This document shows, one piece after another, positions 18,569 to 57,343 of a stretch of 64,000 nt of DNA. This stretch comes from an uncultured Polyangiaceae bacterium (GTDB lineage: Bacteria > Acidobacteriota > Thermoanaerobaculia > Multivoradales > JAHEKO01), in NCBI GenBank assembly GCA_964195975.1, contig CAXMQZ010000037.1, positions 23,721-87,720 on the forward strand, given 5' to 3'. Each line of letters opens with the position of its first letter. The stretch's first letter is position 1. The translations under genes were made by a program, and so were the position numbers. Below the pieces are notes generated by a model. That model was given only the letters and a program-made list of their open reading frames with translations. It was not told the DNA's origin and did no database searches.

Positions 18569-18768
18569 CGATCGGCCGGTTCTGTGGCACCCAGGCGCCG
18601 GACCAAAAAGGCCATGGCGAGGGAGATCAAAAGACAGTAGCCGATATGATAGGCGAGACCGACAGGGATTCCACCTAGTACGGTGTCATATCTCCGCCAG
18701 AGCCAGAAATCGTTGTGAAGGAGGTAGAGCACCGCCAACATGAACGCAACAGTGAGACTTCTATTCAA
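18565..18768 (-). CDS. DUF3311-like small membrane protein (SSS-transporter partner; YhdT-like)
   Basis: 67 aa with two TM helices. ATGA overlap with the symporter gene. YhdT/PanF-like small subunits typically sit upstream of SSS transporters. Confidence 0.5.
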   Translation of the reverse strand: MNRSLTVAFMLAVLYLLHNDFWLWRRYDTVLGGIPVGLAYHIGYCLLISLAMAFLVRRLGATEPADR

Positions 18769-20030: not shown

Positions 20031-20032
20031 GG

Positions 20033-24738: not shown

Positions 24739-24787
24739 CTTGAGGCTTTGCCTCGAGAGCAAGTATTGCCCACAGGTTTCGAGAAGG

Positions 24788-26002: not shown

Positions 26003-26009
26003 CATTGCC

Positions 26010-34985: not shown

Positions 34986-35047
34986 GTTCCAAGGAATCCG
35001 ATCGTTCGTCACCTTCTTCGTCTGGGGTTTCTGGACGAAGCGACCCG

Positions 35048-40648: not shown

Positions 40649-40690
40649 CTCGATCGAATCGAGTCATCTCGACGACTTCTCGAATACCGT

Positions 40691-41923: not shown

Positions 41924-44011
41924 TCAGCTGGACGGTGTCTCTGATTTGGGCTTGCGGCGAAGAATCCATAACAGCATCGATGCGGCGCCAATCAAAAGCA
42001 TCACACCGCGCCGCGGACTGCCCAGGATCAGGTCTCCTGTGCCGGCCAGCGAACCGAATAGGACGAAGAGGGCGGCTCCAAACCTCAACGCAGTACCAGC
42101 CATCGACTCGGGAGGTGTTGGACTCCAACGGGCCCAGGCCTTTGAAGGGGGTCGTACCAGAGTGGCAAATCGCCTCAGCGTAGCGTCGTCGTTTCGAGGG
42201 CCGAAAAGCGAGACTGGAATCCATGTGGCCAAACTGACTCCGGCGATCATCATGATCTTGCTCCATCCCGGCACTGCGGTTACGAAGAACGGATTGGGCC
42301 CTCCAAACAGGGTTTCGGTGCCAAAGACTTCGAGCCCCACACCAAGAAGCGTCGTGACACCCATGGCTGCGAGCTCGGCATAGGCAGTCACTCGTGGCCA
42401 GAACCATCTCAGGGCGCTCACCGAACCCAGCCCTGCACCGAGCGTGACCAGAAACCGCCAAACGGAAGCGATATTTTGAATCTGCAGTGCGACCAGCCCT
42501 GCGATGACCGCGATCAGGAGCACGCTGAGTCTCGAGACAAAAACGTAGTGTTGTTGACTCTGATCCGGGCGAATAAAGCGACGATAGAGGTCCTGGACGA
42601 GATACGAGGCGCCCCAGTTCACATGCGTGTCAATGGTGCTCATGAAGGCAGCCAACAGACTTGCCACGACAAGGCCGAGGAGGCCACTCGGAAGCACCTC
42701 TCTCATCACGAGAGGGTAGGCCATCTCGCGATCGAGCAACTCGATGCGGAAGCCGGAGAAGTGCACTCCCGGATCCTGGCCCGGACATGAAAGGCGAAGA
42801 TCGAAGACTCCGGTGTCATCGAAGCCGCGAAAGGACGCCATGTGTTTGCCTGGGCCGACTTTCTCGAGCGGTCGGCTCTGTCCTGCCAGATCCGCGTCGC
42901 AGTTGTCAGGTAGCCCAAGAAAGACCAGTGTGCCACCGGTCGCGAGATCGAGGGTCGATGGGGAAACCAGGGCAGTGTGGGTACCCTCAGGATCGATGGG
43001 CCCTTGAATCTCCAGTCTTGCATCGGGGTTCCCGGGCAGTTGGGGGAACAAGATCAATGATCCCAGTCCAATCAAGATCCACGGCCAGGGTCTGAACGCG
43101 TTGTGCACCACCGCGAACCAGATCATGGCGCCTTCGGCCTGAGCCTCGTCGCGGCATGCTGCCATTCGCTGTACGAAGTATCCGACGCCTTCTGCCCATC
43201 GCCACCAACCCGCAATGAGTAGAGTCAAGAAAAATATCGGGGGAAGGGTAGGGTGATCCGAGGGCGGTATCAGGTCCAGAACGTCGGCCAGCGATCGATC
43301 GCCGGTGGTCTCGACCGCTGTAGCGACTGCGCCCAAGAGGCCTGAGGGTGCCTCTGTTTCTGTTGGTGCATTACCGAGACCGCCGAATTGACTGACCAGC
43401 AAGACCGCTAGAACTATGGCTCCGACGGCGCTGAGTCCAAACTGAACGAGATCGGTGACCACAACACTTCTGAATCCACCCATCAGCGTGTAGCTCACCG
43501 AAACCGCAATACAGATAGAGATGACGACGATGGGCTCGACCTCGAAAAAGGCTCGACTGATCTTTACCATGGCGGCGATGACCCAGGCCATGGTCAGACA
43601 GTTGATGAAGAGACCGAAGTACAGAGCTTTGATCATGCGAAGTGCCGCCGCGGGTCTTCCGCTGTAGCGAATCTCGGTTATCTCGGCATCTGTAATGACA
43701 CCGGAGCGACGCCACATTCGCGCGAAGAAAAAAGCCGCTGTCAGATGAGCGATAGCGACGGCCCACCAGATCCAATTTCCGCTGACTCCGTCTGTTGCAA
43801 CTATGCCGGTAACCAGCAGCGGCGTGTCAGCTGCGAAGGTCGTTGCGACCATCGAGGTGCCCGCGACCCACCAGGCGAGTTTCCGATCGCCAACAAAAAA
43901 GCTTTCGGTACTCCGGCCAGCTTGCTTTGAGAAGAAGACCCCGGCACCAAGGGCGAAGGCCATATAGGCGGCTATGATCGAGAGATCGAGAAGGGATAGG
44001 CCGTCGGGCAC
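41924..44011 (-). CDS. Sodium:solute symporter family transporter with a large (about 150 aa) soluble insertion
   Basis: 695 aa. SSS-like N-terminal helices, an inserted hydrophilic segment ...FPQLPGNPDARLEIQGPIDPEGTHTALVSPSTLDLATGG...RLSCPGQDPGVHFSGFRIELLDREMAYP..., then further helices. Confidence 0.7.
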   Translation of the reverse strand: MPDGLSLLDLSIIAAYMAFALGAGVFFSKQAGRSTESFFVGDRKLAWWVAGTSMVATTFAADTPLLVTGIVATDGVSGNWIWWAVAIAHLTAAFFFARMWRRSGVITDAEITEIRYSGRPAAALRMIKALYFGLFINCLTMAWVIAAMVKISRAFFEVEPIVVISICIAVSVSYTLMGGFRSVVVTDLVQFGLSAVGAIVLAVLLVSQFGGLGNAPTETEAPSGLLGAVATAVETTGDRSLADVLDLIPPSDHPTLPPIFFLTLLIAGWWRWAEGVGYFVQRMAACRDEAQAEGAMIWFAVVHNAFRPWPWILIGLGSLILFPQLPGNPDARLEIQGPIDPEGTHTALVSPSTLDLATGGTLVFLGLPDNCDADLAGQSRPLEKVGPGKHMASFRGFDDTGVFDLRLSCPGQDPGVHFSGFRIELLDREMAYPLVMREVLPSGLLGLVVASLLAAFMSTIDTHVNWGASYLVQDLYRRFIRPDQSQQHYVFVSRLSVLLIAVIAGLVALQIQNIASVWRFLVTLGAGLGSVSALRWFWPRVTAYAELAAMGVTTLLGVGLEVFGTETLFGGPNPFFVTAVPGWSKIMMIAGVSLATWIPVSLFGPRNDDATLRRFATLVRPPSKAWARWSPTPPESMAGTALRFGAALFVLFGSLAGTGDLILGSPRRGVMLLIGAASMLLWILRRKPKSETPSS

Positions 44012-44047: not shown

Positions 44048-45568
44048 TCACTGCGGTCGAGCCCGCCCCCGTCGGATCCCGACAAGACTTGCCAGGAACC
44101 GCCAGTCTTTTCGTCCAGCGAGCCCGGTCAGGGTCGCCAGGGTTGCGAAAACCGGAAGATAAATCGCGACCTTGATCAGAAGATCGAAGGCGGCCGAGGC
44201 ATCGATCATTCTTGCCGCCAACAGTGCCGGGATGCTGGCCAGAGCGGCAACCGTGAGTGTGCGGCAGTAGAAACCAAAAGGGAACACCTCTCTCAGCGGT
44301 ACGTTTAGAACTTGACTGAGAGCAAGCAGGACATAGAGCCAGGCTATGAACGTTGCGATCAAGGTAGATATGGCGGCACCGACCATTCCCAGCCAGAGGA
44401 CAAAAGGCACACTCAAGATCAGATTTATGACGGCTGATAGTCCTGCCCAAGCCGTAATGACACGAGTCTTGTTGATCGCTTTTAGGACTGCACTGTAGTC
44501 AGCCACTCGCTGAAAGAGGGTCAGAGAATAAATGCTGAACACGATTGCTGCGCCTTCGTACTCCCGTGAAAAGAGCAGCACGATGAGCTCCCGCGAAATC
44601 AGAACGAACATCACCATCAGAGGTAGGACCATCACGCTCACCTTGGTGATCGACTTCGTCCAAAGTGACAAAAGCTCCTCTTTGTTGCCTTCCAAGTAGG
44701 AGGTGACCAAAGGGATCATCATCACCGAGGCGACCGAGGTGGCAATCATCGGTACGAGAGGTATCTCCCAGGCCCCAACTGAGTATTCCGCAAACACGAC
44801 CACCGGGAGCAGAAACATTACGACGTACTTGTCGATGAATTGGTTGATCTTCCAAAGCAGGTCTGCGATTCCAAGGGGCACCGAGTAGCCCAGGACCTGC
44901 CAAACCATATCGCCGGGTAGAGTTGCACCTGTCTTCTCGAGCTCATGCGAGAAACAGATACTGGTCACGATGACCCGAAAGACGCCATAACCAACGAGTG
45001 CATAGCAGACAGTCTGTATTGGCCGACCTAGGGCAGCAGGAACGACCATGGCTGCAAACAACACAAAACTGAACAAAATCGTAACTCGGGCCGCCTGCTT
45101 GGTCTTTCCGAGTGCGATCAGAACGTTTTGGATGGGATAGGTGGGCAGCTCAATGATGACCAGAAAGGCCAACGGGATCATCAGCCCGACAACGTCGTAG
45201 CCCCGTGAGGAAGCGATCAGGCCGATCAGCAAGAGCAGCAGAGCACCACCGACCGCGATGTAGAATAGGATCCTGCTGATCAAGAAAACGAAAGCGCGAT
45301 GTGCATCCTCCTTCACGATCCCGAGGTAGTAGAAGACACTACCGGGTAGACCGAGTTGGGCCAAAGAGGTGACTGCCAAATAAGTCAGGAGAGCAAAGCT
45401 GAGCAGGCCAAAATCTGGTTTGGGCAGCAACCGGGCGAGAATAGCGATCCCAGCGATACGCGTGATCCCACCGACCGCTTTGCTGACAACGAGAATGCTG
45501 GCTTTCGAGGCGAGCGCGGTCTTCTCCGAGGGACCTGAGCTCTGATCAGCTGGGGACGAAGTGGTCAA
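44048..45568 (-). CDS. MOP-superfamily flippase (Wzx/polysaccharide biosynthesis protein family)
   Basis: 506 aa with about 14 TM helices. N-terminus ...ASILVVSKAVGGITRIAGIAILARLL... is typical of the Wzx/PST family. Confidence 0.7.
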   Translation of the reverse strand: MTTSSPADQSSGPSEKTALASKASILVVSKAVGGITRIAGIAILARLLPKPDFGLLSFALLTYLAVTSLAQLGLPGSVFYYLGIVKEDAHRAFVFLISRILFYIAVGGALLLLLIGLIASSRGYDVVGLMIPLAFLVIIELPTYPIQNVLIALGKTKQAARVTILFSFVLFAAMVVPAALGRPIQTVCYALVGYGVFRVIVTSICFSHELEKTGATLPGDMVWQVLGYSVPLGIADLLWKINQFIDKYVVMFLLPVVVFAEYSVGAWEIPLVPMIATSVASVMMIPLVTSYLEGNKEELLSLWTKSITKVSVMVLPLMVMFVLISRELIVLLFSREYEGAAIVFSIYSLTLFQRVADYSAVLKAINKTRVITAWAGLSAVINLILSVPFVLWLGMVGAAISTLIATFIAWLYVLLALSQVLNVPLREVFPFGFYCRTLTVAALASIPALLAARMIDASAAFDLLIKVAIYLPVFATLATLTGLAGRKDWRFLASLVGIRRGRARPQ

Positions 45569-45651: not shown

Positions 45652-46629
45652 CTACCTCGCCTCGAGGGCGTTGCGGTCACAAGTATACCAAGCATGGGTT
45701 CTGCCAAGACCTTCATTCAAATTCACCTGCGCCGTGAAATCCGTGGCCTTTTGTAGCTTCTTCGGGCTGCACACGAACCCCTCCGACAGGATCTCGCGAT
45801 ACTTCGATGGTGTCAGCAACGGGTTGAGACCGAGCTTCGCAGCGGGTACTCCAAGGGCCATGACCAACCAAAGAATGTTTCGAGGCACCCGAGTTGGCCG
45901 GTAGGTTTTATGGCAGGTCCGTGCCAGCACGCTTAGGAAGTCGTCGGCTGTGTGTGGCTCGTTGTGAGCGACAAAAAACACCTCCGACAGGGCCTGTGGG
46001 TGACAACCGACGATCTCGATAGCTCGAACCAGATCGCTGATGTAGAGGAATGAGAACGCCGAGTCAGGCTTGGCCAGCACCGGGAAGAAGCCACGCCAGG
46101 CGCAGCGGAAAAGAGAGAGAAAGTCCCGATCGCCGGGACCGTATACTGCGCTGGGTCGCAGGATCGTATAGGCGAGGCCGTCGATTCTGCGGACTGCCTG
46201 CTCACCGGCCAGCTTACTCTTGCCGTAGTCAGTTATCGGGTCAGGGATATCTGTTTCGGTCCGAGGCTTTTGTAGAGTTCCGGTGCCGGCAGCGGCCTGA
46301 CTCGATACATGGACGAGTCGAGCTCCGCTAGCCCGAGCCGCCAGCGCCACTTGTTCTGCTGCCCCCGCATTTGCGGGCAGATAGTCCTTCAAGCTCGGCG
46401 CACGGGTTTTCCCGGCTAGGTGAATCACCAGGTCGCAGCCATTGAAGGCCACGGTCAGCTCGTTGCGCTGCAGCGGGCTGACGACAGGCTCCGACTCTGC
46501 CGGAGGCGCTCTTGTGGTCTCGGGCCGCAGAATCGCGCGAACCTGCCAACCAGCTCTCGCCAGATGCAGAGAGAGGTGTCGCCCAATAAAGCCGGTCGAG
46601 CCCGTGACAGCAACTTTGCCTTCCATCAC
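45652..46629 (-). CDS. NAD-dependent epimerase/dehydratase-family (extended SDR) protein
   Basis: Rossmann motif VAVTGSTGFIGRHL. 325 aa with a YxxxK region. In this context it is a candidate 3-ketosphinganine-type reductase (inference). Confidence 0.8.
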   Translation of the reverse strand: MMEGKVAVTGSTGFIGRHLSLHLARAGWQVRAILRPETTRAPPAESEPVVSPLQRNELTVAFNGCDLVIHLAGKTRAPSLKDYLPANAGAAEQVALAARASGARLVHVSSQAAAGTGTLQKPRTETDIPDPITDYGKSKLAGEQAVRRIDGLAYTILRPSAVYGPGDRDFLSLFRCAWRGFFPVLAKPDSAFSFLYISDLVRAIEIVGCHPQALSEVFFVAHNEPHTADDFLSVLARTCHKTYRPTRVPRNILWLVMALGVPAAKLGLNPLLTPSKYREILSEGFVCSPKKLQKATDFTAQVNLNEGLGRTHAWYTCDRNALEAR

Positions 46630-46689
46630 AGCTGTTCTTGAAAGATCCGATAGGTTTTGTAGACAATGCCACCCGCGACCCTGATTTCG

Positions 46690-47913
46690 CTAGATGACAC
46701 CCAAGGACTTCCCGACGCGGTCGAAGGCGAACAGGATCTCTTCGATGTCGTCGTGGCTATGTCTGGCAGTAATGCTCGTCCGGACAATACACTCACCGTC
46801 GGGCACGCCTGGTGGTACTGCAGGCGACGTGAAGATCCCCTCGTCCCACAGCGCTTGCCAGAAGCGAAATGTCTTTGATTCCTCGCCTATCAGAACCGGC
46901 ACAATCGGGGTCTCGGAACCGAGGGTGTCGAAACCCAGTTCATGCATGCTTTTGCGGTAGAACTTGACATTCTGCTGTAGCTTTTCGCGTCGCCAGGTCT
47001 CTTTTTGAATTAATTCGAGGGCCTTGGTAGTGGCAGCGATCTGCATTCCGGGGAGCGCAGCCGTAAACATGAAGGGTCGCGCGACGCAGCGAACATAGCC
47101 CACGATATCGGTGTCTCCGCCGATAAACCCTCCTACCGAGCCGAATGCCTTGGAGAAGGTGCCCACGACGAGGTCTACACCCTGTTCCTGACCAAGATGC
47201 TCCGCAGTGCCACGACCTGCCTTGCCAAGGACTCCGGTTCCGTGTGCATCGTCGACTAGAAGGCCAGCATCGTACCGCTCGGCCAGCTCTACGAGTCGAT
47301 CCAACGGCGCGATGTGACCGCTCATGGAGAAGACACCATCGGTGACGATGAGCCGCCCACCGGGGCGATCGGAGTCCTTCTCGAGGAGGTGCGCGAGCTG
47401 GTCTATGTCGTTGTGTCGATATTTTCGGATCTTCGAGAATGAGAGTCTCGAGCCGTCGTAAAGACTGGCATGATTCTCACGATCAAAGTAGAGAATATCC
47501 TTTCGACCTCCGAGGGCGCTCAAGGCGCTCAGGCAGCCTTGAAATCCGGTGCTGAAGGTGAGAACACTCTCGACCTGAAGAAACTCGGCCAACTGTTCTT
47601 CTAGACGGTCATGCAACACCAGGGTTCCGGTGAGAAACCGTGAGCCGGTACAGCTCGTGCCATAGCGATCGAGAGCGCGGCGTGCGGCGGCCTTGACTCT
47701 CTCATCGCAAGCCAGGCCAAGATAGTCGTTGGAGCATGCAACAAGCTTCTCCTCTCCTTCGACCATCCATCGAACACCAGCATTGGTTTCGACTTGGCGA
47801 AAGTAGGGTTTGAAACCGGCCGCGGCAAGGTCTGCCAAGCGGACGTACTGCTGTGCTTTCTCGAACACGGCCTTGGGCCGTCTCGAGTCGTCGACTGTCT
47901 CAGGAATCACCAT
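46690..47913 (-). CDS. Alpha-oxoamine synthase family PLP enzyme, serine-palmitoyltransferase-like
   Basis: 407 aa. The PLP-lysine region GTFSKAFGSVGGFIGG is FSK...GGF as in SPT, unlike GTLGKA of BioF/Kbl. Confidence 0.7.
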   Translation of the reverse strand: MVIPETVDDSRRPKAVFEKAQQYVRLADLAAAGFKPYFRQVETNAGVRWMVEGEEKLVACSNDYLGLACDERVKAAARRALDRYGTSCTGSRFLTGTLVLHDRLEEQLAEFLQVESVLTFSTGFQGCLSALSALGGRKDILYFDRENHASLYDGSRLSFSKIRKYRHNDIDQLAHLLEKDSDRPGGRLIVTDGVFSMSGHIAPLDRLVELAERYDAGLLVDDAHGTGVLGKAGRGTAEHLGQEQGVDLVVGTFSKAFGSVGGFIGGDTDIVGYVRCVARPFMFTAALPGMQIAATTKALELIQKETWRREKLQQNVKFYRKSMHELGFDTLGSETPIVPVLIGEESKTFRFWQALWDEGIFTSPAVPPGVPDGECIVRTSITARHSHDDIEEILFAFDRVGKSLGVI

Positions 47914-47961
47914 TGGACACCACCCTTGTTCTATGTTTTCACTAATAAACGTCGGGAGAGA

Positions 47962-48585
47962 CTAGCTGTCAGCCTCCAGTGCGTCGATTCGATTCCTGAG
48001 ACGCTCGATGACAGTTTCTACCGACGAGACTCTCAACATTCTCGCAAATTGTTTTCGATAATTCTTAATCGTATCCACTCCATCCACAACGTAGTTGGTG
48101 ATCACCCAACTATCTTCGGATGGAATCAAATAGTAGTCGAGCTCAATGTCATCCTCACCATAGCGCGCGATCGTTCGCACAGTTGCTGTCTCGCCATCGA
48201 TATCCTCGCCTACGTACTCAAAACTATCGGCGCGATACCTTCCAAGTTTTCTTACCGACGAGACTCGAAGAAGCTCCCTGAAGACCTCTTTGAAGGTCTC
48301 GCAATCATCGCCAGCGGCAGGATCACAGAGACCGTCGATCGCCTCATTCGCAATGGTCGAAAAAGAGGTCATCTGATCCATAACATCGAAAACCTGTTCG
48401 TTCACGTCCGAGTCGGCTCTGCCGGAGTCTTTCGAATAGAGATCCAGGATCTCATCGTTCGACTCTCGAATTACCTGTAATGGTCCTTCTTGGGCAACAG
48501 CCGGAGAAATTGAGACCAACAGGAGAGTTACCGTGGCGGCATACCGCAACAGATCTACAATTTTAGCTGATTTCGACCGTTTCAT
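47962..48585 (-). CDS. Secreted hypothetical protein, possibly MlaC/Ttg2D-like lipid-binding periplasmic protein
   Basis: Signal peptide MKRSKSAKIVDLLRYAATVTLLLVSISPAVAQ. About 200 aa of mixed alpha/beta composition. Context only; no diagnostic motif. Confidence 0.35.
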   Translation of the reverse strand: MKRSKSAKIVDLLRYAATVTLLLVSISPAVAQEGPLQVIRESNDEILDLYSKDSGRADSDVNEQVFDVMDQMTSFSTIANEAIDGLCDPAAGDDCETFKEVFRELLRVSSVRKLGRYRADSFEYVGEDIDGETATVRTIARYGEDDIELDYYLIPSEDSWVITNYVVDGVDTIKNYRKQFARMLRVSSVETVIERLRNRIDALEADS

Positions 48586-49981
48586 GATCAATCCACTCCA
48601 GGTAGAGCTCAATGCGCCCCAATGTCAACGCTATGCGGGCCAGGGCGAGCTGATACTGAGCTTCTTGCTCGATGACTATCGCACCGAGCTCGTAGTATTG
48701 GCCGTAGGCGTCTACCAGCCGGTCGACGCTACCAAGACCGAGGTCCCAATTATCACCGCTTAGTCTCAGCCAGCGTTTTGCCGCCTTCTTGGATCTCTTG
48801 GCAGCATCGAGTAAATCTGAGAGAGCCTTTGCTTCCGCATAGGCTCGGGTGACCTCGATAATCAGTCGATCTTCGAGAACCGACAGTTGCTCGATGGCTT
48901 CCTGCCGCTCGACAGATGATTGGCTGATGGCCAGTCGGTGATCGGCAAACTTGAGGTTCCACCGAAGACCCAAGAAACCACCGATTGTCCGCAGGTTGAA
49001 TGGATCCAGAATGAAAGGATTTCTGATATCGGTTCGGTTTGGAGCGCGAGCGTAGGCCCCACCCAAAGCGAGAAAGATGTCGGGCCACCTGGACGCCTCG
49101 GCTAGCGCCAATTTACTATCGAGTGCGCCGAGGCCGGCACGGGCTTGTTGGATCGGCGGACTCGAATCCATTGCCATTGTGATTAGTGAGTCCAACATGT
49201 CCTCGTCTGGTAGCCCCGGTGTCCCCGCAGGAGCGAAGCTATCCGAATCGAGCTTGCCCCAGTCGAGCAGGACCTCCAACGATGCACCCGCAATCTCCTG
49301 ATTCTTGACACTCTGTCTGCCCGCGGCTCTAATCCCGTACTCGAAGCTCTGCACTTCGAATAGGCGTGTGTCATCTACGTCGGAGTCGGGGTCATTCGCA
49401 GCTCGCTCGACCTCCTCGAGCAATCTCTCGTAGTCCTTTTGCAAATCCTCGGCCAGATTGACACCACGATTTGCCGATTCAAACCCCCAAAACGCCTGCA
49501 CGACTTGGAATCCGAGCTTCGCAGCTGTGAAATCTCTACCGAACTCCCGTACGAGAACACCCTGCTCGGCCGCGGCTCGAGCGGAGGCGATCTTTCCAAA
49601 AGTCGTAAGCGGCTGGGCGATCCTAAGGTCGAATCGATAAAATACCCCCAGATTGTTGAGGTCTTCGTTGGAGTCCGGTGACTCGAAGATGTTTCCTTTT
49701 GCTTGCGGGACCAAACCCGTCTTGAAGTCGAGATCGATACTGGGTAGTTTTGTGTTCTTGACTTCCTTGACGTCGAGCTCGGCACGCTGCACTTTGTAGC
49801 GCTCGGCCTGAACGACTGGATGGGTCGCAAGGGCGTGTTCGACGGCTTCGCGTAGGGTATGGCGTGCGGAGTCGTCAACCGCGTCGGTCGTCTGGCTGTG
49901 GGTCACTTCGGGGATTAAAAGGCACAAGAACAGTACTGTCCACGGTAGCGACCGCGGGCTGTTTGACAATGAATTGTGCAC
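48563..49981 (-). CDS. TolC-family outer-membrane efflux channel
   Basis: 472 aa. Signal peptide plus an internally duplicated helical/beta structure. The N-terminal ...LREAVEHALATHPVVQAERYKVQRAELDVKEVK is the typical OEP start. Confidence 0.75.
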   Translation of the reverse strand: MHNSLSNSPRSLPWTVLFLCLLIPEVTHSQTTDAVDDSARHTLREAVEHALATHPVVQAERYKVQRAELDVKEVKNTKLPSIDLDFKTGLVPQAKGNIFESPDSNEDLNNLGVFYRFDLRIAQPLTTFGKIASARAAAEQGVLVREFGRDFTAAKLGFQVVQAFWGFESANRGVNLAEDLQKDYERLLEEVERAANDPDSDVDDTRLFEVQSFEYGIRAAGRQSVKNQEIAGASLEVLLDWGKLDSDSFAPAGTPGLPDEDMLDSLITMAMDSSPPIQQARAGLGALDSKLALAEASRWPDIFLALGGAYARAPNRTDIRNPFILDPFNLRTIGGFLGLRWNLKFADHRLAISQSSVERQEAIEQLSVLEDRLIIEVTRAYAEAKALSDLLDAAKRSKKAAKRWLRLSGDNWDLGLGSVDRLVDAYGQYYELGAIVIEQEAQYQLALARIALTLGRIELYLEWIDHETVEIS

Positions 49982-50080
49982 TCTTAGGACGGACCCTGGA
50001 CTTAGTTCAACACTTGGAGTCGAGCGGGGTGGCTCAGATCTTCTACGAGCGGGACGGCGTTCCAGCTTCGCGCGATCGGA

Positions 50081-50764
50081 TCACCGTGTGGTCCGTACTC
50101 TTCGTTCCCTGGAGATACGGGTTCCAAACGCCATGTCCCAGATGACGCTGCTGACACCGAACCCGCGGTCGGGATCATGGTAATGGTGCACCACATGGTG
50201 TTCTTGGAGACGCTTCCAGATAGGGTGGCGAAGCGGCGCATGATAAACGGCGTAATGGATCATGTCGTAGGCTAGATAGCCGACCAGAAACCCGGCTGAT
50301 GCAGCATAAAAGACACCACCATTTCCGAGGGTCAGCCGAAATAGCAGGTAGAAAGGAATCACCAGAATCACTGCCAGGAGCGGTGGCATCACAAGCCGTT
50401 TCTGATCGTTTGGGTAGTCGTGGTGAATACCGTGTAGCAGGAAGTGCCACCTTTTCCCCAGATCGCTCGAGGGTTCGTAGTGAAATACGAACCGGTGAAG
50501 CAAGTATTCGGACAAGGTCCAAAAGAAGACGCCACCCGTAAAGAAGAGAAGCAGCTGCGCGGGCTGGTTGCCTGAAAATTGTGCGGCTTTATACAGACAA
50601 AAGCCGACTATCGGAACCCAAAAAATCAGAGGGTAGGACCAGTGGACGTATGACTGAGCGTCGAGCGTTGGGTTTTTGAAGAGTCGGATCGACTCCTTCG
50701 CGTTTGAAACATACATTTTGGACACTTGGATCTCACCTCCGCGGAGACCGGCGCATCCCTCCAC
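50081..50764 (-). CDS. Fatty-acid hydroxylase superfamily (sterol desaturase/FA2H-like di-iron membrane enzyme)
   Basis: Four His boxes: HRFVFHY, HGIHHDYP, HYAVYH, HHVVHHYH. Confidence 0.8.
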   Translation of the reverse strand: MEGCAGLRGGEIQVSKMYVSNAKESIRLFKNPTLDAQSYVHWSYPLIFWVPIVGFCLYKAAQFSGNQPAQLLLFFTGGVFFWTLSEYLLHRFVFHYEPSSDLGKRWHFLLHGIHHDYPNDQKRLVMPPLLAVILVIPFYLLFRLTLGNGGVFYAASAGFLVGYLAYDMIHYAVYHAPLRHPIWKRLQEHHVVHHYHDPDRGFGVSSVIWDMAFGTRISRERRVRTTR

Positions 50765-50841: not shown

Positions 50842-51813
50842 CGAACCGTGTTAGAGATCCTGACCCGGCTCAAAGCGGACCTGCAGCGTGTAGGGAAGCC
50901 TCGAGAGGTTGAAGGTGTTCTGGATCGCTTTCTCATCCGACCTTGCGGGTATGTAATAGCGCGATGGCTGACGCCGAGTTGGGTAAGCCCCAATTTTCTG
51001 TCGTTGTTGGCCTTAGCCTTCGGATGGCTCACCGCTTACTGTCTCTTTGAAACGGCCAGATTGGGAAACCTTCCCGTCTACTCCGGGCTTGCCGCTCTGT
51101 CGATGGTACTTCACTCTGCTTTCGACAGCGCCGACGGTCAGCTGGCCCGTGCTAGAGGGACGACCAGTGAGTTTGGCCGCATACTCGATGGGATATGTGA
51201 CTATCTCAGTTTTGCAGCTATCTATCTGGCTATCGGTCTCGGTCTGGGAGTCAGAGCAGGAACGGGAATGACTCCCTTCGTTCTTTCAGCGGTGGCGGCG
51301 GGTCTATCGCATGGCCTTCAGTGCGCTGTGGTCGAGAATCAACGCAATCTGTACCGACACTACGTACATGGCGCCGAGCTTCCCTTCGACGCTTCAGAGC
51401 CCGAACCAGGTGCGCAGATCGAGAGCGAGTTGGGCTTCCTACAACTCATACACGGGGCCTACTCCAAGCTTCAGATGGTTTTTGGGGGCTCGAGTCTTCG
51501 CTTGTGGCGCAAGGTCGACGGCTGGCAGCAGAGCCATTCTAGCGACTCGGATCGAATCGTTGGCCTGATAGTTGCTAATAACTTGAAGCGATTGCCTTTG
51601 TGGGCCCTGCTGGCGCCAAATTCTCACAAAGTAGGGATGATCGTCGGAGCTTTTATTCCAGTAGGAAGCAGTACGGTTTTCGGAGAACTGGGTCTGTTTT
51701 GGTACTTTCTCTATGTCGTTGTAGGTCTGAATCTACTGATGATCGTAATGATTTTCACCCAATCATTGGTAGATCGCCGAACCTGGGTTGCGCTAATGGA
51801 AGATTCCCACTGA
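50842..51813 (+). CDS. CDP-alcohol phosphatidyltransferase family protein; start uncertain (ORF opens at 50704, overlapping the hydroxylase; GTG near 50842 with GAGAGG upstream)
   Basis: Signature D-x2-DG-x2-AR-x8-G-x3-D-x3-D as DSADGQLARARGTTSEFGRILDGICD. Confidence 0.75.
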   Translation, partial: RTVLEILTRLKADLQRVGKPREVEGVLDRFLIRPCGYVIARWLTPSWVSPNFLSLLALAFGWLTAYCLFETARLGNLPVYSGLAALSMVLHSAFDSADGQLARARGTTSEFGRILDGICDYLSFAAIYLAIGLGLGVRAGTGMTPFVLSAVAAGLSHGLQCAVVENQRNLYRHYVHGAELPFDASEPEPGAQIESELGFLQLIHGAYSKLQMVFGGSSLRLWRKVDGWQQSHSSDSDRIVGLIVANNLKRLPLWALLAPNSHKVGMIVGAFIPVGSSTVFGELGLFWYFLYVVVGLNLLMIVMIFTQSLVDRRTWVALMEDSH

Positions 51814-51814
51814 A

Positions 51815-53152
51815 GTGCTCGGGCGCGATGGCTCGACTAGCCGGAACAAGTCTCGGACGATGAGATCAATCGTCACTGTTACAACTCCCCGTGCCTTCGA
51901 CGAGCTCGGCGGACTCATGTTGTGGCAACGTGTGATCAGGACTCTGGGACATCTAGGCTCAGAGTCGGTTCAACTGATCATCGTTCCCGAATTGTCTGAG
52001 TTGGGATTGAAAGAGAGTGTGTGGCAAGAGTCGTATCTCGATGATGGCGATATCCAGGCCGTTGCGGGGAAGTCTCTGACTTCGGTCGATCTCCTCGAGA
52101 TGGCCGGGGAGGGCGAGGGGCCGATTCTTGTCGTGCCCGGAGAATCCGTTTTTGACCCGCGGATCCTCGAATTCTGTTTGAACCAGACCGCTCCGGTTGC
52201 CTGCGTCGACCGAGATCCGCCGGCAGAGTGGCGAGCACTGGTGGAAAACGCCCCACGGGTCGGCGATGCTCGATTCTGTGGTCCCGTGGTAGTAACAGAT
52301 GAATGGCTGAATCGGTATCCAGGGGACTTTCCTGACGCTGTCGCAAAGACTATTGCGCATGGATCACTGCCGACAGTTGACGTCGACTCCTTGCCGACAA
52401 GAGCAGGGAATCTACGACGAGATGTCAGACCCTTTTGGTTCCCAGCGCCAGATTCCAAAGACAGAAGCTTGGCAAGGCGTCTGCTGTTGTCTTCGACTCA
52501 GAAGGGCTCACTCGACCTTCCTGCAATGGTTCATGCTCCGATTGAGAAGCTCGTGGCCTGGAGCCTGGCGGGGACCAAGATCACTCCCAACATGGTCACT
52601 GTTCTGACTACTCTGGTTGCCTGGGTTGCCACCGTCATGTTTATCCGGGGCCATCTTGTCACCGGTCTCGTACTTGCTCTGATGGTTGGAGTATTGGATG
52701 GTGTTGACGGCAAACTGGCGCGTCTACGATTCGAGTTCTCCAGATTCGGCGAGCTCGAGCACTGGCTGGATTTTCTGTACGAATGGTCGTGGTGGGTCGC
52801 GCTGGCCTACTACTTCTCGAGCTCTGGTCTGCTCCCACAAGCCTGGCGCGTTCTTGGACTGCTAGCCTTCTTCGAAGTTGTCGATGGCTTGGCCAAGGCG
52901 ATCAGTATTGTCTCGTTTGGGCGTCTCATCGACGAAATATCTCCGTTTGAAAGGATGGTGCGAATCTTTGGTGGTAGGCGTAACGTATATATTTGGCTCA
53001 TGGTTCTCGGAACGGTCTTGGGAAAGCCTGCAGCGGCCTTTGAGATTTTGCCAATCTGGCAGGGAGCTACCGCGATTCTTCACTGGATAAGACTCCCCTG
53101 GCTTTTTGCCAATTCTCGTAAAGAGCAGCGGATAGGTGGAATCACCGGATGA
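51815..53152 (+). CDS. Two-domain protein: N-terminal ~230-aa soluble domain (possibly degenerate nucleotidyltransferase-like) fused to a CDP-alcohol phosphatidyltransferase membrane domain
   Basis: C-terminal domain has LDGVDGKLARLRFEFSRFGELEHWLD (CDP-OH_P_transf-like). The N-terminal domain lacks a clear GxGTR motif. Confidence 0.6.
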   Translation: MLGRDGSTSRNKSRTMRSIVTVTTPRAFDELGGLMLWQRVIRTLGHLGSESVQLIIVPELSELGLKESVWQESYLDDGDIQAVAGKSLTSVDLLEMAGEGEGPILVVPGESVFDPRILEFCLNQTAPVACVDRDPPAEWRALVENAPRVGDARFCGPVVVTDEWLNRYPGDFPDAVAKTIAHGSLPTVDVDSLPTRAGNLRRDVRPFWFPAPDSKDRSLARRLLLSSTQKGSLDLPAMVHAPIEKLVAWSLAGTKITPNMVTVLTTLVAWVATVMFIRGHLVTGLVLALMVGVLDGVDGKLARLRFEFSRFGELEHWLDFLYEWSWWVALAYYFSSSGLLPQAWRVLGLLAFFEVVDGLAKAISIVSFGRLIDEISPFERMVRIFGGRRNVYIWLMVLGTVLGKPAAAFEILPIWQGATAILHWIRLPWLFANSRKEQRIGGITG

Positions 53153-55563
53153 TGGACCGGTTGTGGCGGATTGTCTCGCGGGTCTCAGCAGAACATACCT
53201 GGTGGGTGCTGGGCATGACCCTGTTGGTCAGTATTCCTGCCTTCTTGTCGGTAAAGAATATCGGGCTCGACACCAACCTGAAGCGACTTCTTCCTGAGCA
53301 TGCGCCGTCGGTCCGGTGGAGCCGCGAGCTCGAGGAGTCGGTCGGAGACGGGGGGTACTTCGCGATCCTAATAGAGGGAGATGATCGTCAAGTATTGATC
53401 ACTACGATCGAAGAAATAGCCGACAGGGTAGGGGATCTCCCCTCGATTCAATCAGTTGATTATCGAAACCCCAAAGAGTTTGTCGACGAGTATCGCTACA
53501 CCCTGCTACCCAACTCACTTCTCGAGGAGCTCAGAGACGAGATCGAGCGGTGGGAGATCGAAGTCAATCCGTTTCTACTCGACCTGGATGCCCCCGAGAC
53601 CTCCGATACCCAAGCTGATGACGACGAGGAGGATGCCGATCGCTTGGAGAAATTCCTGACTCACTACGTGCATATGGACGAATATCAGGCCGACTCGGAG
53701 GGTCGTATTTTTGGCATGATCATTAGACCCAAGGAAGGTATCTCGAATCTAGCCAGCCTGAGAGAGCTGTACGGTGAGCTTCAGAGGATCACTGCCGAAT
53801 CGGTCGAGGGGAAGGGGTTGTGGTGGGGCATCGGAGGTAATCTTCGTACGCGGGTCGACGAGTTCGATCTGATCGTCTCGGATCTAGGAAGGGCCGGATG
53901 GGTCTCGGCAATAGCGATTCTGCTGACTTTGGCGATCAGCTTTCGGTCCTTCAAAGTCCTGCCAGTTATCCTCTACCCTTTGGCGATGGGTCTTCTGTGG
54001 TCGTTCTGCTTTGTCCCGACTTTGGTGGGAGATCTGAATACTATTACCGCGTTTCTCTTGTTGGTGTTGTTTGGCATGGGCGTGGACTATGCAATCCACC
54101 TCGTGAGCCGATTTGAGGTCGAATTGACCTCGCGGTCTCCCGAAGAGGCGCTAGAGGAGACCCTTCGATCGACAGGTAGATCGGTAGCGACCTCCGGTGC
54201 GACTACGGCCATAGCTCTACTGATTCTGTCGGTGTCCGATTTTAGGGGTTTTTCGGACTTTGGCATCATCGGCGGAACCTCGATCGGAGTCATCACATTG
54301 GCAATGCTTTTTGTATGGCCGGCCTGTGCCGTCGCCGGCGTCAAGCTCGGACTCGTCTCGGCGGGAAAGCCCTCGACCGAGGGATGGGCTCTACCGCTCC
54401 CAGGGCCTATCGTAATAGTTGGGGTGTTAACGCTTGTTGGCCTATCGATATTCGCCGCTCGGGAGTACCTTCAGTTCGACTACGACTTCACCAAATTAAG
54501 CGCCACTATCCCGGGCAAGGAAGAGATCAACGAGAAACAGAGAAAGGTCTATCCTGCCACCTCTGCACCTGCGGCTCTCTATGTAGCCAGAGACCTCGAA
54601 GCTCTCGATCAGATTATGGCTTTGCTGGAGAAAAAGCGCGACGAAGCAGCCGATTCCCCGACTATTGGCACGATCAACAGCATCAGAAATTTCGCTCCGA
54701 GCCGTTCGCAGTTCGACCGTCGACTCGAGACTATCGCCGAGATGCGGGATTCACTCCAAGGTCGGTGGGTAAGAAAGATCGACGATCCTGATCGAAAGGA
54801 GATCATTGAAGACTTTCTGGCATTCGAGCCACCGAACAACCCCCCACGCATCGACGAGGTTCCAGTATCGATCAGCCGAGAGCTGATGGCTCGCGATGGC
54901 TCTGGAGCGTTGGTGACCGTCGACACCGATGGGCGCAGTCGGGATGGCAGGATGGCCATGGCGTTTACCAGGGACCTTTATGAGATCGACCTTCCTGAGG
55001 GCGTGCGGGGACCCACAGGTGAAAAACTCGTACTTGCGGAGATACTTTTCCTGGTCACCGGCGAGAGTGCCTGGATTGTGGCTCTCACTTTTGGAGGGAT
55101 TTTTATCCTGGTCCTCCTGGATCGGAGATCGGTCATCCAGACAGTCTGGGTCTTGGTGCCGCTGGCGGCTGGCATTCTTCTGACTCTGGGAGCCATGGTA
55201 GTACTCGGCTGGAAGCTGAATTTCTTCAATCTGGTCGTACTGCCAACGATGTTAGGAGTTGGGGTGGATCATGGTGTGCACTACTACCGGCGATGGCGGG
55301 AGGTCGACGGCGACACCCGTTCGACCCACTACGAGTTGTTTGGACCCATCACGATCGCGTCGGTAACCACGATGATGGGTTATCTCGGCATGGTGCTCGC
55401 ACACCACCCAGGCTTGCGCTCGATCGGACTGCTCGCGCTTGTCGGATTGACGGCTACCTGGTTTACAGCTCTGGTGCTGCTACCGGGTCTTCTTTGCTGG
55501 CAGAGGGGTTGTATGCCAGGTCTTCTTCGATTGCAGAAGAGTCCTAGGACTGAAAGTTCGTAA
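53149..55563 (+). CDS. MMPL/RND-superfamily exporter (HpnN/MmpL-like lipid transporter)
   Basis: 804 aa with two 6-TM bundles, each preceded by a large periplasmic domain. 4-nt overlap with the upstream gene. Confidence 0.8.
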   Translation: MMDRLWRIVSRVSAEHTWWVLGMTLLVSIPAFLSVKNIGLDTNLKRLLPEHAPSVRWSRELEESVGDGGYFAILIEGDDRQVLITTIEEIADRVGDLPSIQSVDYRNPKEFVDEYRYTLLPNSLLEELRDEIERWEIEVNPFLLDLDAPETSDTQADDDEEDADRLEKFLTHYVHMDEYQADSEGRIFGMIIRPKEGISNLASLRELYGELQRITAESVEGKGLWWGIGGNLRTRVDEFDLIVSDLGRAGWVSAIAILLTLAISFRSFKVLPVILYPLAMGLLWSFCFVPTLVGDLNTITAFLLLVLFGMGVDYAIHLVSRFEVELTSRSPEEALEETLRSTGRSVATSGATTAIALLILSVSDFRGFSDFGIIGGTSIGVITLAMLFVWPACAVAGVKLGLVSAGKPSTEGWALPLPGPIVIVGVLTLVGLSIFAAREYLQFDYDFTKLSATIPGKEEINEKQRKVYPATSAPAALYVARDLEALDQIMALLEKKRDEAADSPTIGTINSIRNFAPSRSQFDRRLETIAEMRDSLQGRWVRKIDDPDRKEIIEDFLAFEPPNNPPRIDEVPVSISRELMARDGSGALVTVDTDGRSRDGRMAMAFTRDLYEIDLPEGVRGPTGEKLVLAEILFLVTGESAWIVALTFGGIFILVLLDRRSVIQTVWVLVPLAAGILLTLGAMVVLGWKLNFFNLVVLPTMLGVGVDHGVHYYRRWREVDGDTRSTHYELFGPITIASVTTMMGYLGMVLAHHPGLRSIGLLALVGLTATWFTALVLLPGLLCWQRGCMPGLLRLQKSPRTESS

Positions 55564-55603: not shown

Positions 55604-56554
55604 CTATTCGGATTCTTGCCGTCGAAAGGAATCCGTAGCTGATGCCCTCCGCACGCACGAGATCGTGCACCGGTCTTCGCAGCCCTTTCGAGTATAGAAC
55701 TCTCTCAGGCGATGATCTTTGGTGTACTCGCTCAACGGGATACCAGGATCATTTCGTCGCTGACTGCAGTATGAGACGATCCCGTCCTCATCTACATAGA
55801 GATACCGGGCGCCAGCGCGGCATTTCCAGGGAGCCGAACCGTCTCTAATGATCTTCGACTCCCAGCCTTCACCAACGTGGTGGAGAAGGCTCTTACGGCT
55901 TCGCCCATGAATCTCTTGATAGAAATCCGCCAGACTGTCGCCGAGAAGACCGGGGTCGAGTTGGCCCTCCTGGTCATGCATCAGGCCGACGGTCATATAA
56001 AAGCCCATTTCTTGAACACCCTGCACGACCTCACGTGTTTCCTCGAGGTTGCTGGATCCGAGCACGGCGTTGACGGTCACCTTGAACTTGGCATGATCGC
56101 GCAGCAGGGCCAGACGCTCCTTTAGACTCGACCAGGATTTTTCGGAAACTTCGTTGGGCTCCAGGTTGTCGATTGAGACCTGTAGGATCGTGAGCCCGGA
56201 GTCGTTGAGTCGCTCGATCCAGCGTGAAGTCAAGGTGTATCCGTTCGTGATCGACGTACAAACCATCCCGCGCGATACTGCGTAGCGGATCAATTCGTCC
56301 AACATTGGATGGAGAAGAGGCTCACCGCCCGTCAGGGTCAATACAACTGTGCCTGCATCGGCAATTTGATCGATGCGCTCGATCAAGTCTCTGGTGTCGA
56401 CTGGCGGAGAAACGTGGTCAAACTCGTTACAGTACCCGCAGGCAAGATTGCAGCGACGGGTGACAACTAGTTGGACAAGGACAGGTTTTGAAGGCGAAAG
56501 TATTGCCGCGCCCGCTCGGGCCAGGGAGCGAATAGGTGGGTTGGGTAGAAGCAT
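55604..56554 (-). CDS. Radical SAM enzyme with C-terminal Cys-rich (twitch/SPASM-like) region, function unknown
   Basis: CNLACGYC (CxxxCxxC) and GGEPLL. C-terminal cysteines ...WKCRAGARY...SYCSQ...KGCEDRCTISC. Confidence 0.75.
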   Translation of the reverse strand: MLLPNPPIRSLARAGAAILSPSKPVLVQLVVTRRCNLACGYCNEFDHVSPPVDTRDLIERIDQIADAGTVVLTLTGGEPLLHPMLDELIRYAVSRGMVCTSITNGYTLTSRWIERLNDSGLTILQVSIDNLEPNEVSEKSWSSLKERLALLRDHAKFKVTVNAVLGSSNLEETREVVQGVQEMGFYMTVGLMHDQEGQLDPGLLGDSLADFYQEIHGRSRKSLLHHVGEGWESKIIRDGSAPWKCRAGARYLYVDEDGIVSYCSQRRNDPGIPLSEYTKDHRLREFYTRKGCEDRCTISCVRRASATDSFRRQESE

Positions 56555-56569: not shown

Positions 56570-57343
56570 CTAGTCTGAGGTCGATCGAACGGATAGCTCG
56601 GTCAACAGATCGCGGGCGTCGGATGTTGCCAGGCGAAGATCGTCCGGTGTGTCGATATCGATCCACATGCGTGGTCCAGGGAGAGTCGCAGCCAGGACCA
56701 ATCCCTTGGAAGCGCAGTGCCGAACACCGTCGGAGAGTGAGAACCGGGAATTTGCCTGTGCGGTCTCGAGACCCTCTGCAAGAGTTTTGGTGCAATAGAA
56801 AAGCCCGGAATCACCGGCATCCCACGACGTAAGCTCTTTACCGATGGCGACTACGTGACCGGCTTCGGTTTGTACTTTTGTCAGATCATCGAGATCGACG
56901 ATCGATCCCGGAAAGGGATCCACGGCCAGAGTGATCTTGTCTGCGTCCATGTCAAAATCGATCAGGTACCTGATCATCTGGGGAGAGAACAAGTGGTCAG
57001 CCATAGAAAGTAGGAACGGTCGCGGCGAGAAGGATCGAGCGAGGGCCAAAGCCGTGACACCGTTTCCCTTCTCCCAACCCTGGACGGTCACGAACTCGAT
57101 ATCGATCCCAAGTCGTTCAGCAATATCCAAGTAGTTATTACGCACCATGTCGGCTTTGAACCCGAGCCCGACTCGGAACTCGCGCACTCCGGCGGCGTAG
57201 AATGCATTCAGACTCCACTCCGCAATGGTTGCCCCATGAAGTGGCATGCATGGCTTCGGTAGTTTCTCGTCCACTCCTCGCAGCCGGGTGCCTTCACCGG
57301 CAGCGAGAATGGAGACGGGTAGGGGTAGAGCAGTCTCCATCAC
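56570..57343 (-). CDS. Nucleotidyltransferase (sugar/alcohol-phosphate cytidylyl-/guanylyltransferase fold); candidate CTP:inositol-1-phosphate cytidylyltransferase
   Basis: ILAAGEGTRL (GxGTRL) motif near the N-terminus. 257 aa. Adjacent to inositol-3-phosphate synthase. Confidence 0.65.
   Translation of the reverse strand: MMETALPLPVSILAAGEGTRLRGVDEKLPKPCMPLHGATIAEWSLNAFYAAGVREFRVGLGFKADMVRNNYLDIAERLGIDIEFVTVQGWEKGNGVTALALARSFSPRPFLLSMADHLFSPQMIRYLIDFDMDADKITLAVDPFPGSIVDLDDLTKVQTEAGHVVAIGKELTSWDAGDSGLFYCTKTLAEGLETAQANSRFSLSDGVRHCASKGLVLAATLPGPRMWIDIDTPDDLRLATSDARDLLTELSVRSTSD

Follow-up and report, generated by a model that had tools for sequence, protein, structure and literature searches.

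Probable biosynthetic core for inositol-phosphoceramide-type sphingolipids, with a deleted ceramide synthase gene, in an Acidobacteriota-like diderm

What becomes of a bacterial sphingolipid pathway when its ceramide synthase gene is excised and the neighboring genes are kept? The question is raised by a 64,000-nucleotide stretch of DNA from an uncultured bacterium (GenBank assembly GCA_964195975.1, contig CAXMQZ010000037.1, positions 23,721 to 87,720), hereafter called the window, in which three open reading frames (ORFs) encode an alpha-oxoamine synthase (AOS), an extended short-chain dehydrogenase/reductase (SDR) of the NAD-dependent epimerase/dehydratase family, and a fatty-acid hydroxylase. 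An initial annotation of this DNA had read the three genes as a sphingolipid core standing next to an inositol module, with the caveat that no bacterial ceramide synthase (bCerS) could be seen in the window. We recovered all three ORFs at the same coordinates, on the minus strand, and our analysis supports that reading of core and module; the closest analogs are the Spt-bCerS-CerR pathway, the Scs7-type hydroxylases, and an alternative inositol cluster described below. The caveat was also right, and it is explained by an excision between the AOS and SDR genes that left a relic of the lost gene behind. We consider it probable that the locus belongs to an Acidobacteriota-like diderm and forms the core of a sphingolipid island of the inositol-phosphoceramide type, the ceramide synthase gene of which has been deleted. 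By ancestry, the sphingolipid assignment is well supported; the core is complete in its ancestral form and now lacks the acylation step at the locus.

The AOS gene adjoins the epimerase-family gene, as annotated, with only 63 nt between the AOS stop codon and the SDR ATG. The same interval measures 1,140 nt in two relatives (L007 and L010), which gives a deletion of 1,077 bp. When two bCerS-like proteins were compared with the window by tblastn, the 63-nt spacer yielded a 19-residue match and the rest of the window yielded nothing; the match corresponds to the last 19 residues of a 369-amino-acid (aa) protein of Trueperaceae. The spacer encodes EIRVAGGIVYKTYRIFQEQL followed by a stop codon, where the family C terminus in L007 reads AIEASGSTLYKTYRIFQKQL and stop, and the relic stop overlaps the SDR start (TGATG) as it does in intact operons. 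In the window lineage, the relic is thus the leader of the SDR gene. L010, on a 125-kb JGI contig, is collinear with window positions 56556 to 37264 at 68 to 75% nucleotide identity, with 14 genes in the same order, and the sole break that blastn finds in these 19 kb sets L010 positions 9961 to 11072 against window positions 46692 to 46661. Pfam scans, which covered selected non-overlapping ORFs of the 64-kb window (nearly all of those of at least 110 aa), detected neither a GNAT protein, the class to which the missing gene belongs, nor an acyl carrier protein, both of which the initial annotation had proposed to seek in the flanks.

An independent Logan assembly (L001) shows the identical deletion junction, and an equal junction is present in two ENA contigs (L094 and L095) whose AOS is 90% identical and whose relic carries 10 substitutions. 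Because the junction recurs in these assemblies, the deletion is neither an assembly artifact nor a recent strain lesion, and since it is common to the window lineage and L094/L095, it predates about 10% of AOS protein divergence. Another relative, L093, with an AOS 89% identical to that of the window, still carries the GNAT gene. A metagenome scan for the relic 20-mer returned five unrelated chance matches and no further deletion-bearing contigs. Compared with L094 (positions 1882 to 1947), the relic shows 10 differences in 64 positions, a smaller number than the proportion of synonymous differences in the AOS gene (pS 0.41) would lead one to expect, and the substitutions are mostly nonsynonymous in the old reading frame. 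A role as 5' leader or coupling region for the SDR gene, not as a peptide, may constrain the relic.

In every relative examined, deletion carriers apart, a gene for 368 or 369 aa lies between the AOS and SDR genes. Relatives with this intact AOS-GNAT-SDR arrangement have AOS identities to the window of 68% (L002/L003), 61% (L004, Trueperaceae), 88% (L006/L007), 66% (L008), 87% (L009, an Acidobacteriota metagenome-assembled genome [MAG]), 87% (L010), and 89% (L093). The 368-aa protein gives weak C-terminal matches to Acetyltransf_1 and bears the IMG name "GNAT superfamily N-acetyltransferase"; its AlphaFold2 model has a predicted local distance difference test score (pLDDT) of 90.5, and the nearest PDB folds found by Foldseek are tandem-GNAT amine N-acyltransferases (glucosamine N-acetyltransferase, MAB_4324, and mycothiol synthase). 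A genome-collection scan with the family alignment gave at least 80 GNAT loci from many phyla. Among the matches listed, an AOS homolog lies within 6 kb in 63 of 80 loci, directly upstream and on the same strand in 53 of 80, and a homolog of the window SDR is present in 48 of 80; Myxococcus, Corallococcus, and Pyxidicoccus are represented, and ceramide phosphoinositol is a reported product of Myxococcus xanthus (PMC9246714).

The order of AOS, GNAT, and SDR genes is that expected of spt-bcerS-cerR, whose co-localization defines "Spt-like" proteins in about 40 phyla (PMC11334938). The AOS orthologs at 61 to 89% identity are co-localized with bCerS- and CerR-type genes in this way; the window itself keeps only the SDR gene and the 20-codon relic. 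In the Bacteroidota and the alpha-, beta-, and gammaproteobacteria, bCerS is normally encoded away from spt (PMC11334938, PMC11324152). The operon of the window's relatives resembles the Spt-bCerS-CerR pathway of Caulobacter crescentus (Stankeviciute et al. 2022, as cited in PMC11087976 and PMC11334938; Olea-Ozuna et al. 2021, as cited in PMC11324152) in combining an AOS dependent on pyridoxal 5'-phosphate (PLP), a GNAT-type N-acyltransferase, and an NDUFA9-like extended SDR. Unlike that pathway, the window lacks bCerS, through the deletion, and its SDR has no obvious signal peptide; its AOS groups with those of Trueperaceae and Actinomycetota, not with the alphaproteobacterial type. In contrast to the Rhodobacteria type, the window also contains no acyl carrier protein or acyl-ACP synthetase gene. 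The Myxococcus spt locus is similar in that genes for MMPL, MlaC-like, and outer-membrane efflux (OEP) proteins flank AOS-GNAT-SDR, with identities to the window proteins of 47% for AOS, 32 to 34% for SDR, and 24 to 29% for the transport proteins, but the Myxococcus loci keep bCerS and have no inositol module within 6 kb.

Selection since the deletion was gauged by comparing nonsynonymous and synonymous divergence (dN and dS; omega, their ratio) between the window lineage and L094, two lineages that both bear the deletion. For AOS, dS is 0.59, dN 0.054, and omega 0.09; omega is 0.17 for the MlaC-like gene and 0.28 over the first 80 codons of the SDR gene. The AOS values indicate that the deletion is old and that the remaining genes are still selected. 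Measured from the outgroups L002 and L008, the divergence of AOS and SDR is no greater in the window than in the bCerS-retaining L010. Likewise, a relative-rate check for relaxed constraint on SDR and hydroxylase found no significantly raised divergence; the distance of the hydroxylase from L002 exceeds that of the L010 copy by 6 points, a difference within sampling error. The catalytic motifs of AOS, SDR, and hydroxylase are all intact. We infer that the AOS-SDR pair is probably still in use. That a ceramide synthase gene has been excised while its neighbors are under purifying selection is a new observation.

The SDR occupies the CerR position. Besides Epimerase, it matches the Pfam families RmlD_sub_bind, 3Beta_HSD, and NAD_binding_4, and its TGSTGFIG (TGxxGxxG) and YGKSK (YxxxK) motifs are intact; it reaches no NCBIfam cutoff, the best models, HpnA and OleD, scoring far below theirs. 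Two independent gene calls, in L001 (an identical contig) and L094, place its start at the ATG at 46626, the maximal ORF extending to 46629. Its PDB matches include NDUFA9 (E about 1.6e-7 over residues 7 to 250), and a weak similarity to NDUFA9 has been reported for CerR (PMC11087976). In the relatives, the gene lies directly 3' of the GNAT gene, and it fills the reductase slot of AOS-GNAT-SDR operons across phyla. Operon position and NDUFA9 similarity both favor the CerR-type reductase that the initial annotation had suggested. In the bCerS-retaining L009 (positions 3030 to 3975; GCA_037388185.1), the SDR appears in the annotation as a pair of ORFs (148 and 158 aa), reflecting either a frameshift or an assembly error.

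The hydroxylase carries four His motifs (HRFVFH, HFLLHGIHH, HYAVYH, and HHVVHH). Alignment with relatives sets its start at 50725, 13 codons inside the maximal ORF (50081 to 50764). The maximal ORFs of the hydroxylase and of CDP-alcohol transferase 1 overlap head to head (50704 to 50764); with the starts that the alignments give, 50725 and 50848, a divergent intergenic (promoter) region of 122 bp separates the two genes. The sole PDB matches of the hydroxylase are to yeast Scs7p, which 2-hydroxylates the very-long-chain fatty acid of ceramide (4zr0 and 4zr1; E 2e-35, residues 25 to 218), with all His motifs aligned, and the representative of its 90%-identity cluster is named "dihydroceramide fatty acyl 2-hydroxylase" in IMG. 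It shares with Scs7p and FA2H the di-iron His-motif membrane hydroxylase domain, over about 190 aligned residues. Unlike the yeast and mammalian proteins, it has no N-terminal cytochrome b5 domain: Pfam detects none, the protein measures 214 to 227 aa, and the match begins at Scs7p residue 182. Plant FAH1/2 and myxobacterial Fah are likewise not known to carry this domain. Of the earlier proposal of a four-His-box enzyme for 2- or C4-hydroxylation, the enzyme class stands, and 2-hydroxylation of an amide-linked acyl chain is favored over C4-hydroxylation because Scs7p is the only solved relative. The intact hydroxylase is our main argument that ceramides may still be made in the window lineage.

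From homology and synteny, a sequence of events can be proposed. The AOS would form 3-ketosphinganine from serine and a long-chain acyl thioester; the tandem-GNAT N-acyltransferase of the bCerS type, encoded in the ancestral operon, would add the amide-linked acyl chain; the extended SDR would reduce the 3-keto group, and the Scs7-like enzyme would 2-hydroxylate the N-acyl chain. Myo-inositol-1-phosphate synthase (MIPS), a cytidylyltransferase resembling inositol-1-phosphate cytidylyltransferase (IPCT), and the CDP-alcohol phosphotransferases would provide the inositol-phosphate head group. A MOP-family flippase and the MmpL/MlaC-like/TolC-like set, to which we assign an export role from family membership and synteny, would bring the lipid to the outer membrane. 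In the window lineage, as the sequence itself shows, the GNAT gene was taken out by one deletion of 1,077 bp. Most likely, N-acylation would now come from another locus or a non-orthologous acyltransferase and ceramide-type lipids would still be made, which fits the intact acyl 2-hydroxylase; the alternative product would be non-acylated sphingoid-base lipids. Provided that the island is what we propose, acylation supplied from elsewhere in the genome is our preferred answer, to which we give about even chances. We infer rather than observe that ceramide is still made, since the synthase is absent from the window and no copy of at least 60% identity was seen outside an operon. In a genome-collection scan with the GNAT alignment, none of the matches listed exceeded 48% identity, and a relocated copy was thereby neither found nor excluded.

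The alternative that survives best, though we judge it unlikely, is that N-acylation has been lost, or has passed to a non-homologous acyltransferase such as the WS/DGAT-family protein encoded at 39263 to 40648. With N-acylation lost, SPT and SDR would make free sphinganine-type bases, which would receive the phospho-inositol head group to give lyso-type lipids or be put to other use. Such a change would agree with a deletion present in two lineages in which AOS, the MlaC-like protein, and the SDR N terminus have been under purifying selection since, with the lack of a GNAT gene in the 64-kb window, and with the database GNAT homologs of at least 60% identity, all of which are in-operon copies from retaining lineages. 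The WS/DGAT gene is syntenic and its product passes its NCBIfam cutoff (332 versus 310 bits); moreover, there are phyla whose Spt-like genes are never near bCerS or CerR genes, and replacement by non-homologous enzymes has been raised (PMC11334938). However, the characterized relatives of the Scs7-like hydroxylase act on amide-linked acyl chains, which argues that ceramide is still made, and the WS/DGAT gene is also present in the bCerS-retaining L010, so it is no lineage-specific replacement. Our view also takes in 64 kb of a genome, and bCerS normally lies away from spt in Bacteroidota and Rhodobacteria (PMC11334938, PMC11324152). Should there be no bCerS elsewhere in this genome, either the reductase would act on 3-ketosphinganine, leading to lyso inositol-phosphate lipids, or a third, non-homologous type of bacterial ceramide synthase would be at work, an outcome to which we give a low probability. 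Acylation from elsewhere in the genome remains the answer that we prefer.

The proposal further requires that the AOS be a serine palmitoyltransferase (SPT). The PLP-lysine block GTFSKAFGSVGGF, quoted in the initial annotation as SPT-like, spans AOS residues 250 to 262, with the PLP lysine K255 inside. Among NCBIfam models, SerpalmtaseCFB, for the SPT of the Cytophaga-Flavobacterium-Bacteroides type, ranks first (412 bits), followed by bioF (384), a BioF/Kbl-related subfamily (378), the betaproteobacterial SPT (375), and Kbl (360). Among PDB entries, the SPT of Sphingobacterium multivorum (SmSPT; 346 bits) precedes a Thermus BioF/Kbl enzyme (288) and the sphingomonad SPTs (246 to 260), with cysteate acyltransferase (215) and CqsA (119) lower still; identity is 44% to SmSPT and 42% to the Thermus enzyme. 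When the SmSPT contact residues for PLP, L-serine, and the acyl pocket (PMC10196870) were transferred by alignment, 21 of 23 active-site residues proved identical in the window AOS, the sole differences being S53D and A79T. In SmSPT numbering, N52, Y54, G80, S81, F83, L84, S243, M271, F272, Y27, and F28 are among those kept, and the Schiff-base lysine and the His/Asp/His PLP triad of the AOS (K255, H148, D221, and H224) correspond to SmSPT K244, H138, D210, and H213. G80-S81-R82, S243, A274, and the R-x-S that follows the carboxylate arginine are common to the AOS and both characterized SPTs and are absent from E. coli BioF/Kbl and the Thermus enzyme.

In a neighbor-joining tree of 50 AOS sequences (Kimura distances), the window AOS falls in a clade with 100% bootstrap together with proteins of other Acidobacteriota, Trueperaceae, and Rubrobacter/Actinomycetota, whose genes adjoin a bCerS-like gene and an SDR gene. 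Both characterized SPTs nest within the ingroup that holds the window AOS. In the phylogenetic placement called for by the initial annotation, the AOS shares an ingroup with the reference SPTs, but the split from the BioF/Kbl references is weak. Overall, the sequence points to SPT without setting the AOS decisively apart from BioF/Kbl, and conserved synteny is the stronger argument for SPT identity; active-site residues, best HMM and PDB matches, and above all this synteny support the SPT-like assignment. It is very improbable, in our opinion, that the AOS is another alpha-oxoamine synthase (BioF/Kbl-like, a cysteate acyltransferase for sulfonolipids, or CqsA-like) and the cluster a source of a different amino-lipid or signal. 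The bioF, BioF/Kbl-related, and Kbl models do score close below the SPT model, the identities to the Thermus enzyme and SmSPT are near each other, and the backbone bootstrap is weak. Against this stand the SPT-specific active-site residues, the low PDB scores of cysteate acyltransferase and CqsA, and the conserved linkage to a GNAT N-acyltransferase, a 3-keto-type SDR, and an Scs7-like hydroxylase, the sphingolipid-producing Myxococcus included; in addition, the Pfam-scanned window ORFs comprise no bio, tdh, or cysteate-synthase genes.

Least probable of all is that the deletion inactivated the pathway and left the other genes as decaying passengers: the locus does lack one of the essential steps of the bacterial ceramide pathway as known, but the other genes are all full length with intact catalytic motifs, AOS omega is low between the lineages sharing the deletion, and AOS and SDR show no excess divergence from the outgroups relative to L010.

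The head-group module also deserves attention. CDP-alcohol transferase 1 has the canonical motif DxxDGxxAR...GxxxDxxxD, and its best NCBIfam matches, which are weak, are archaetidylinositol-phosphate and phosphatidylinositol-phosphate synthases. In CDP-alcohol transferase 2, the motif reads DGxDGxxAR...GxxxHxxxD, with His for the third Asp in all four lineages compared (the window and three relatives); this protein gives 45 bits to the C-terminal half of the NCBIfam IPCT/DIPPS model and begins with a domain of about 220 aa that neither Pfam nor NCBIfam matches. The best NCBIfam match of the nucleotidyltransferase is the N-terminal IPCT half of the same bifunctional IPCT/DIPPS model (94 bits). 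The radical SAM enzyme of the module (316 aa) is the second most conserved product of the island, with 84% aa identity to L010 (positions 142 to 1092); its best NCBIfam models, PqqE, viperin-like, MoaA, and HpnH, are all far under cutoff. In L002, the 68%-identity relative, a 383-aa gene (4910 to 6061, minus strand) with a weak Svf1_C lipocalin-like domain (E 2e-4) sits between the two CDP-alcohol transferase genes and has no counterpart in the window.

The inositol module stands next to the ceramide core, as first noted, not only here and in close relatives but independently in a Luteitalea MAG (L030). There, two CDP-alcohol transferase genes, a radical SAM gene (3741 to 4781) that lies between them and a bCerS-like gene, and an NTP transferase gene are joined to a ceramide core with a sphingomonad-type AOS. 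This independent linkage with a different AOS supports a functional coupling of module and core. A putative CDP-inositol route, functionally unconfirmed, has been described in Bacteroides vulgatus and Prevotella and proposed to yield inositol-phosphoryl dihydroceramide (PMC9246714). Like that alternative cluster, the window groups MIPS, an NTP transferase (predicted to form CDP-inositol), and a CDP-alcohol phosphatidyltransferase. Unlike it, the window has two CDP-alcohol transferases, one a His variant with an extra N-terminal domain, as well as a conserved radical SAM gene, and its module is fused to the ceramide core and an exporter set; it also lacks the HAD hydrolase proposed in that work to convert PI-DAG to PI-ceramide.

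The export genes accompany the core with similar constancy. The MlaC-like gene is syntenic in all close relatives, the TolC-like OEP gene is syntenic in relatives, and the MMPL gene is syntenic in L002 and L010. MlaC and OEP genes also flank the Myxococcus AOS-GNAT-SDR operon, and MMPL genes stand beside the operon in Myxococcus and in the Acidobacteriota loci L033 and L057. All three types (MlaC-like, TolC-like OEP, and MMPL/HpnN-like) accompany the operon in Acidobacteriota, two further MAGs included, and in Myxococcus (L028, L029, L032, L033, and L057). From this recurrence, sphingolipids may have an export route of their own, different from the LptC2F2G2 system that has been proposed in Caulobacter. 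An MmpL protein encoded next to spt in M. xanthus has independently been put forward in 2026 as a candidate sphingolipid exporter, as opposed to the Lpt paralogs of Caulobacter (preprint 10.64898/2026.04.12.717747). The set is built like the HpnN/MmpL3/BstA RND exporters, from an HAE3/MMPL inner-membrane transporter, a MlaC-like lipid carrier of the periplasm (compare HpnM), and a component in the outer membrane. Unlike HpnN, HpnM, and BstA, the window proteins score far under the respective cutoffs (for the MMPL protein, HpnN 225 bits and BstA 163), no hopanoid or sterol synthesis genes lie nearby, and the cargo would be a sphingolipid. A hopanoid locus was considered and dropped, since no hopanoid genes are nearby and the similarity is at the family level: the best NCBIfam scores are HpnA 68 for the SDR (cutoff 368), HpnM 41 for the MlaC-like protein (cutoff 160), and HpnN 225 for the MMPL protein (cutoff 752). 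The physical linkage of a ceramide core to a CDP-inositol module and an MmpL/MlaC/OEP set is likewise new.

Several points weigh against reading the locus as an inositol-phosphoceramide island. The window lacks the ceramide synthase step, and in the protein database no GNAT copy of at least 60% identity was seen apart from those in operons. The AOS stays under every curated NCBIfam cutoff (412 bits versus 640 for the SPT-CFB model), its score against the SPT model is just about 7% above that against bioF, and the BioF/Kbl references separate from all other sequences of the tree at 62% bootstrap, with just three non-SPT references included. The SDR would correspond to CerR by class and by its conserved place behind the GNAT gene, and the GNAT protein to bCerS by its tandem-GNAT fold, its place between AOS and SDR, and its presence in Myxococcus. 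Finally, we predict the head-group chemistry from protein families, the motif of CDP-alcohol transferase 2 departs from the canonical form, and Pfam gives no HAD-family match in the scanned window ORFs. The features of the island are collected in Table 1.

Table 1. Features of the putative sphingolipid island, in window coordinates
Feature	Coordinates	Strand	Evidence
SSF (sodium:solute symporter-family) protein	41924..44011	-	Pfam SSF E 2e-35; position kept in L009 and L010
MOP-family (Polysacc_synt) flippase, candidate for lipid	44048..45568	-	Pfam Polysacc_synt_3 E 3.9e-12
Extended SDR (NAD-dependent epimerase/dehydratase family), CerR position	45652..46626	-	324 aa from ATG; Pfam Epimerase E 3.3e-27
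Relic of bCerS-like tandem-GNAT gene	46626..46688	-	Last 20 codons and stop, EIRVAGGIVYKTYRIFQEQL-stop
AOS, serine palmitoyltransferase-like	46690..47913	-	407 aa; PLP lysine K255; Pfam Aminotran_1_2 E 3.8e-55
MlaC-like periplasmic lipid-binding protein	47962..48612	-	Pfam MlaC E 4.5e-22
TolC-like outer-membrane efflux protein	48563..49981	-	Pfam OEP E 6.9e-33
Putative Scs7/FA2H-type fatty-acyl 2-hydroxylase without cytochrome b5 domain	50081..50725	-	Pfam FA_hydroxylase E 2.4e-18
CDP-alcohol phosphotransferase 1	50848..51813	+	Pfam CDP-OH_P_transf E 8e-13; maximal ORF from 50704
CDP-alcohol phosphotransferase 2	51815..53152	+	Pfam CDP-OH_P_transf at residues 256-361
MMPL/HpnN-like RND (HAE3) transporter, putative lipid	53149..55563	+	Pfam MMPL E 4e-32
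Radical SAM enzyme	55604..56554	-	Pfam Radical_SAM E 2e-20
Nucleotidyltransferase resembling inositol-1-phosphate cytidylyltransferase	56570..57343	-	Pfam NTP_transf_3 and NTP_transferase
Myo-inositol-1-phosphate synthase (MIPS)	57446..58591	-	Pfam Inos-1-P_synth E 6.9e-36

The MOP flippase gene lies directly 3' of the SDR gene and holds the identical position in L009 and L010. On the plus strand, the WS/DGAT gene adjoins a gene for a DUF445 protein (the pair spans 39263 to 41921), both syntenic with the island in L010; about 150 nt are common to their maximal ORFs, and one of the starts is therefore probably internal. The WS/DGAT enzyme is a candidate for an extra O- or N-acylation. Directly beside the MIPS gene, 58742 to 61729 (minus strand) encodes a 995-aa protein with a response-regulator receiver domain, a weak DUF5752 match, and PPDK_N (phosphoenolpyruvate-utilizing, ATP-binding). 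Further away, an 805-aa protein (34814 to 37231, plus strand) carries ASH/HYDIN/Cep192-type Ig-like domains, typical of large secreted or surface proteins. A minus-strand run from 22283 to 28600 encodes a HemN-like radical SAM protein, a beta-propeller protein, an iron alcohol dehydrogenase, an aldehyde-dehydrogenase-family protein, and a short AMP-binding protein, possibly for LuxC/LuxE-like fatty acyl reduction; a TonB-dependent receptor gene and an FAD halogenase-like gene (18765 to 22243) adjoin it.

Bacterial sphingolipid synthesis by Spt, bCerS, and CerR has been worked out only recently; two questions it raises are the order of acylation and reduction, which is disputed (PMC11087976 versus PMC11324152), and the route to the outer membrane. 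The window lineage offers a natural experiment on the first issue: with bCerS gone and spt and the reductase gene still selected, can the reductase use 3-ketosphinganine, or does another acyltransferase step in? As to the second, the linkage of MmpL, MlaC-like, and TolC-like genes to the core in Acidobacteriota and Myxococcota strengthens the idea of an MmpL exporter as an alternative to the Lpt paralogs of Caulobacter. Our reading also predicts that abundant uncultured bacteria of soils and sediments would make inositol-phosphoceramide-type lipids via a CDP-inositol route, which would bear on the interpretation of environmental lipidomes.

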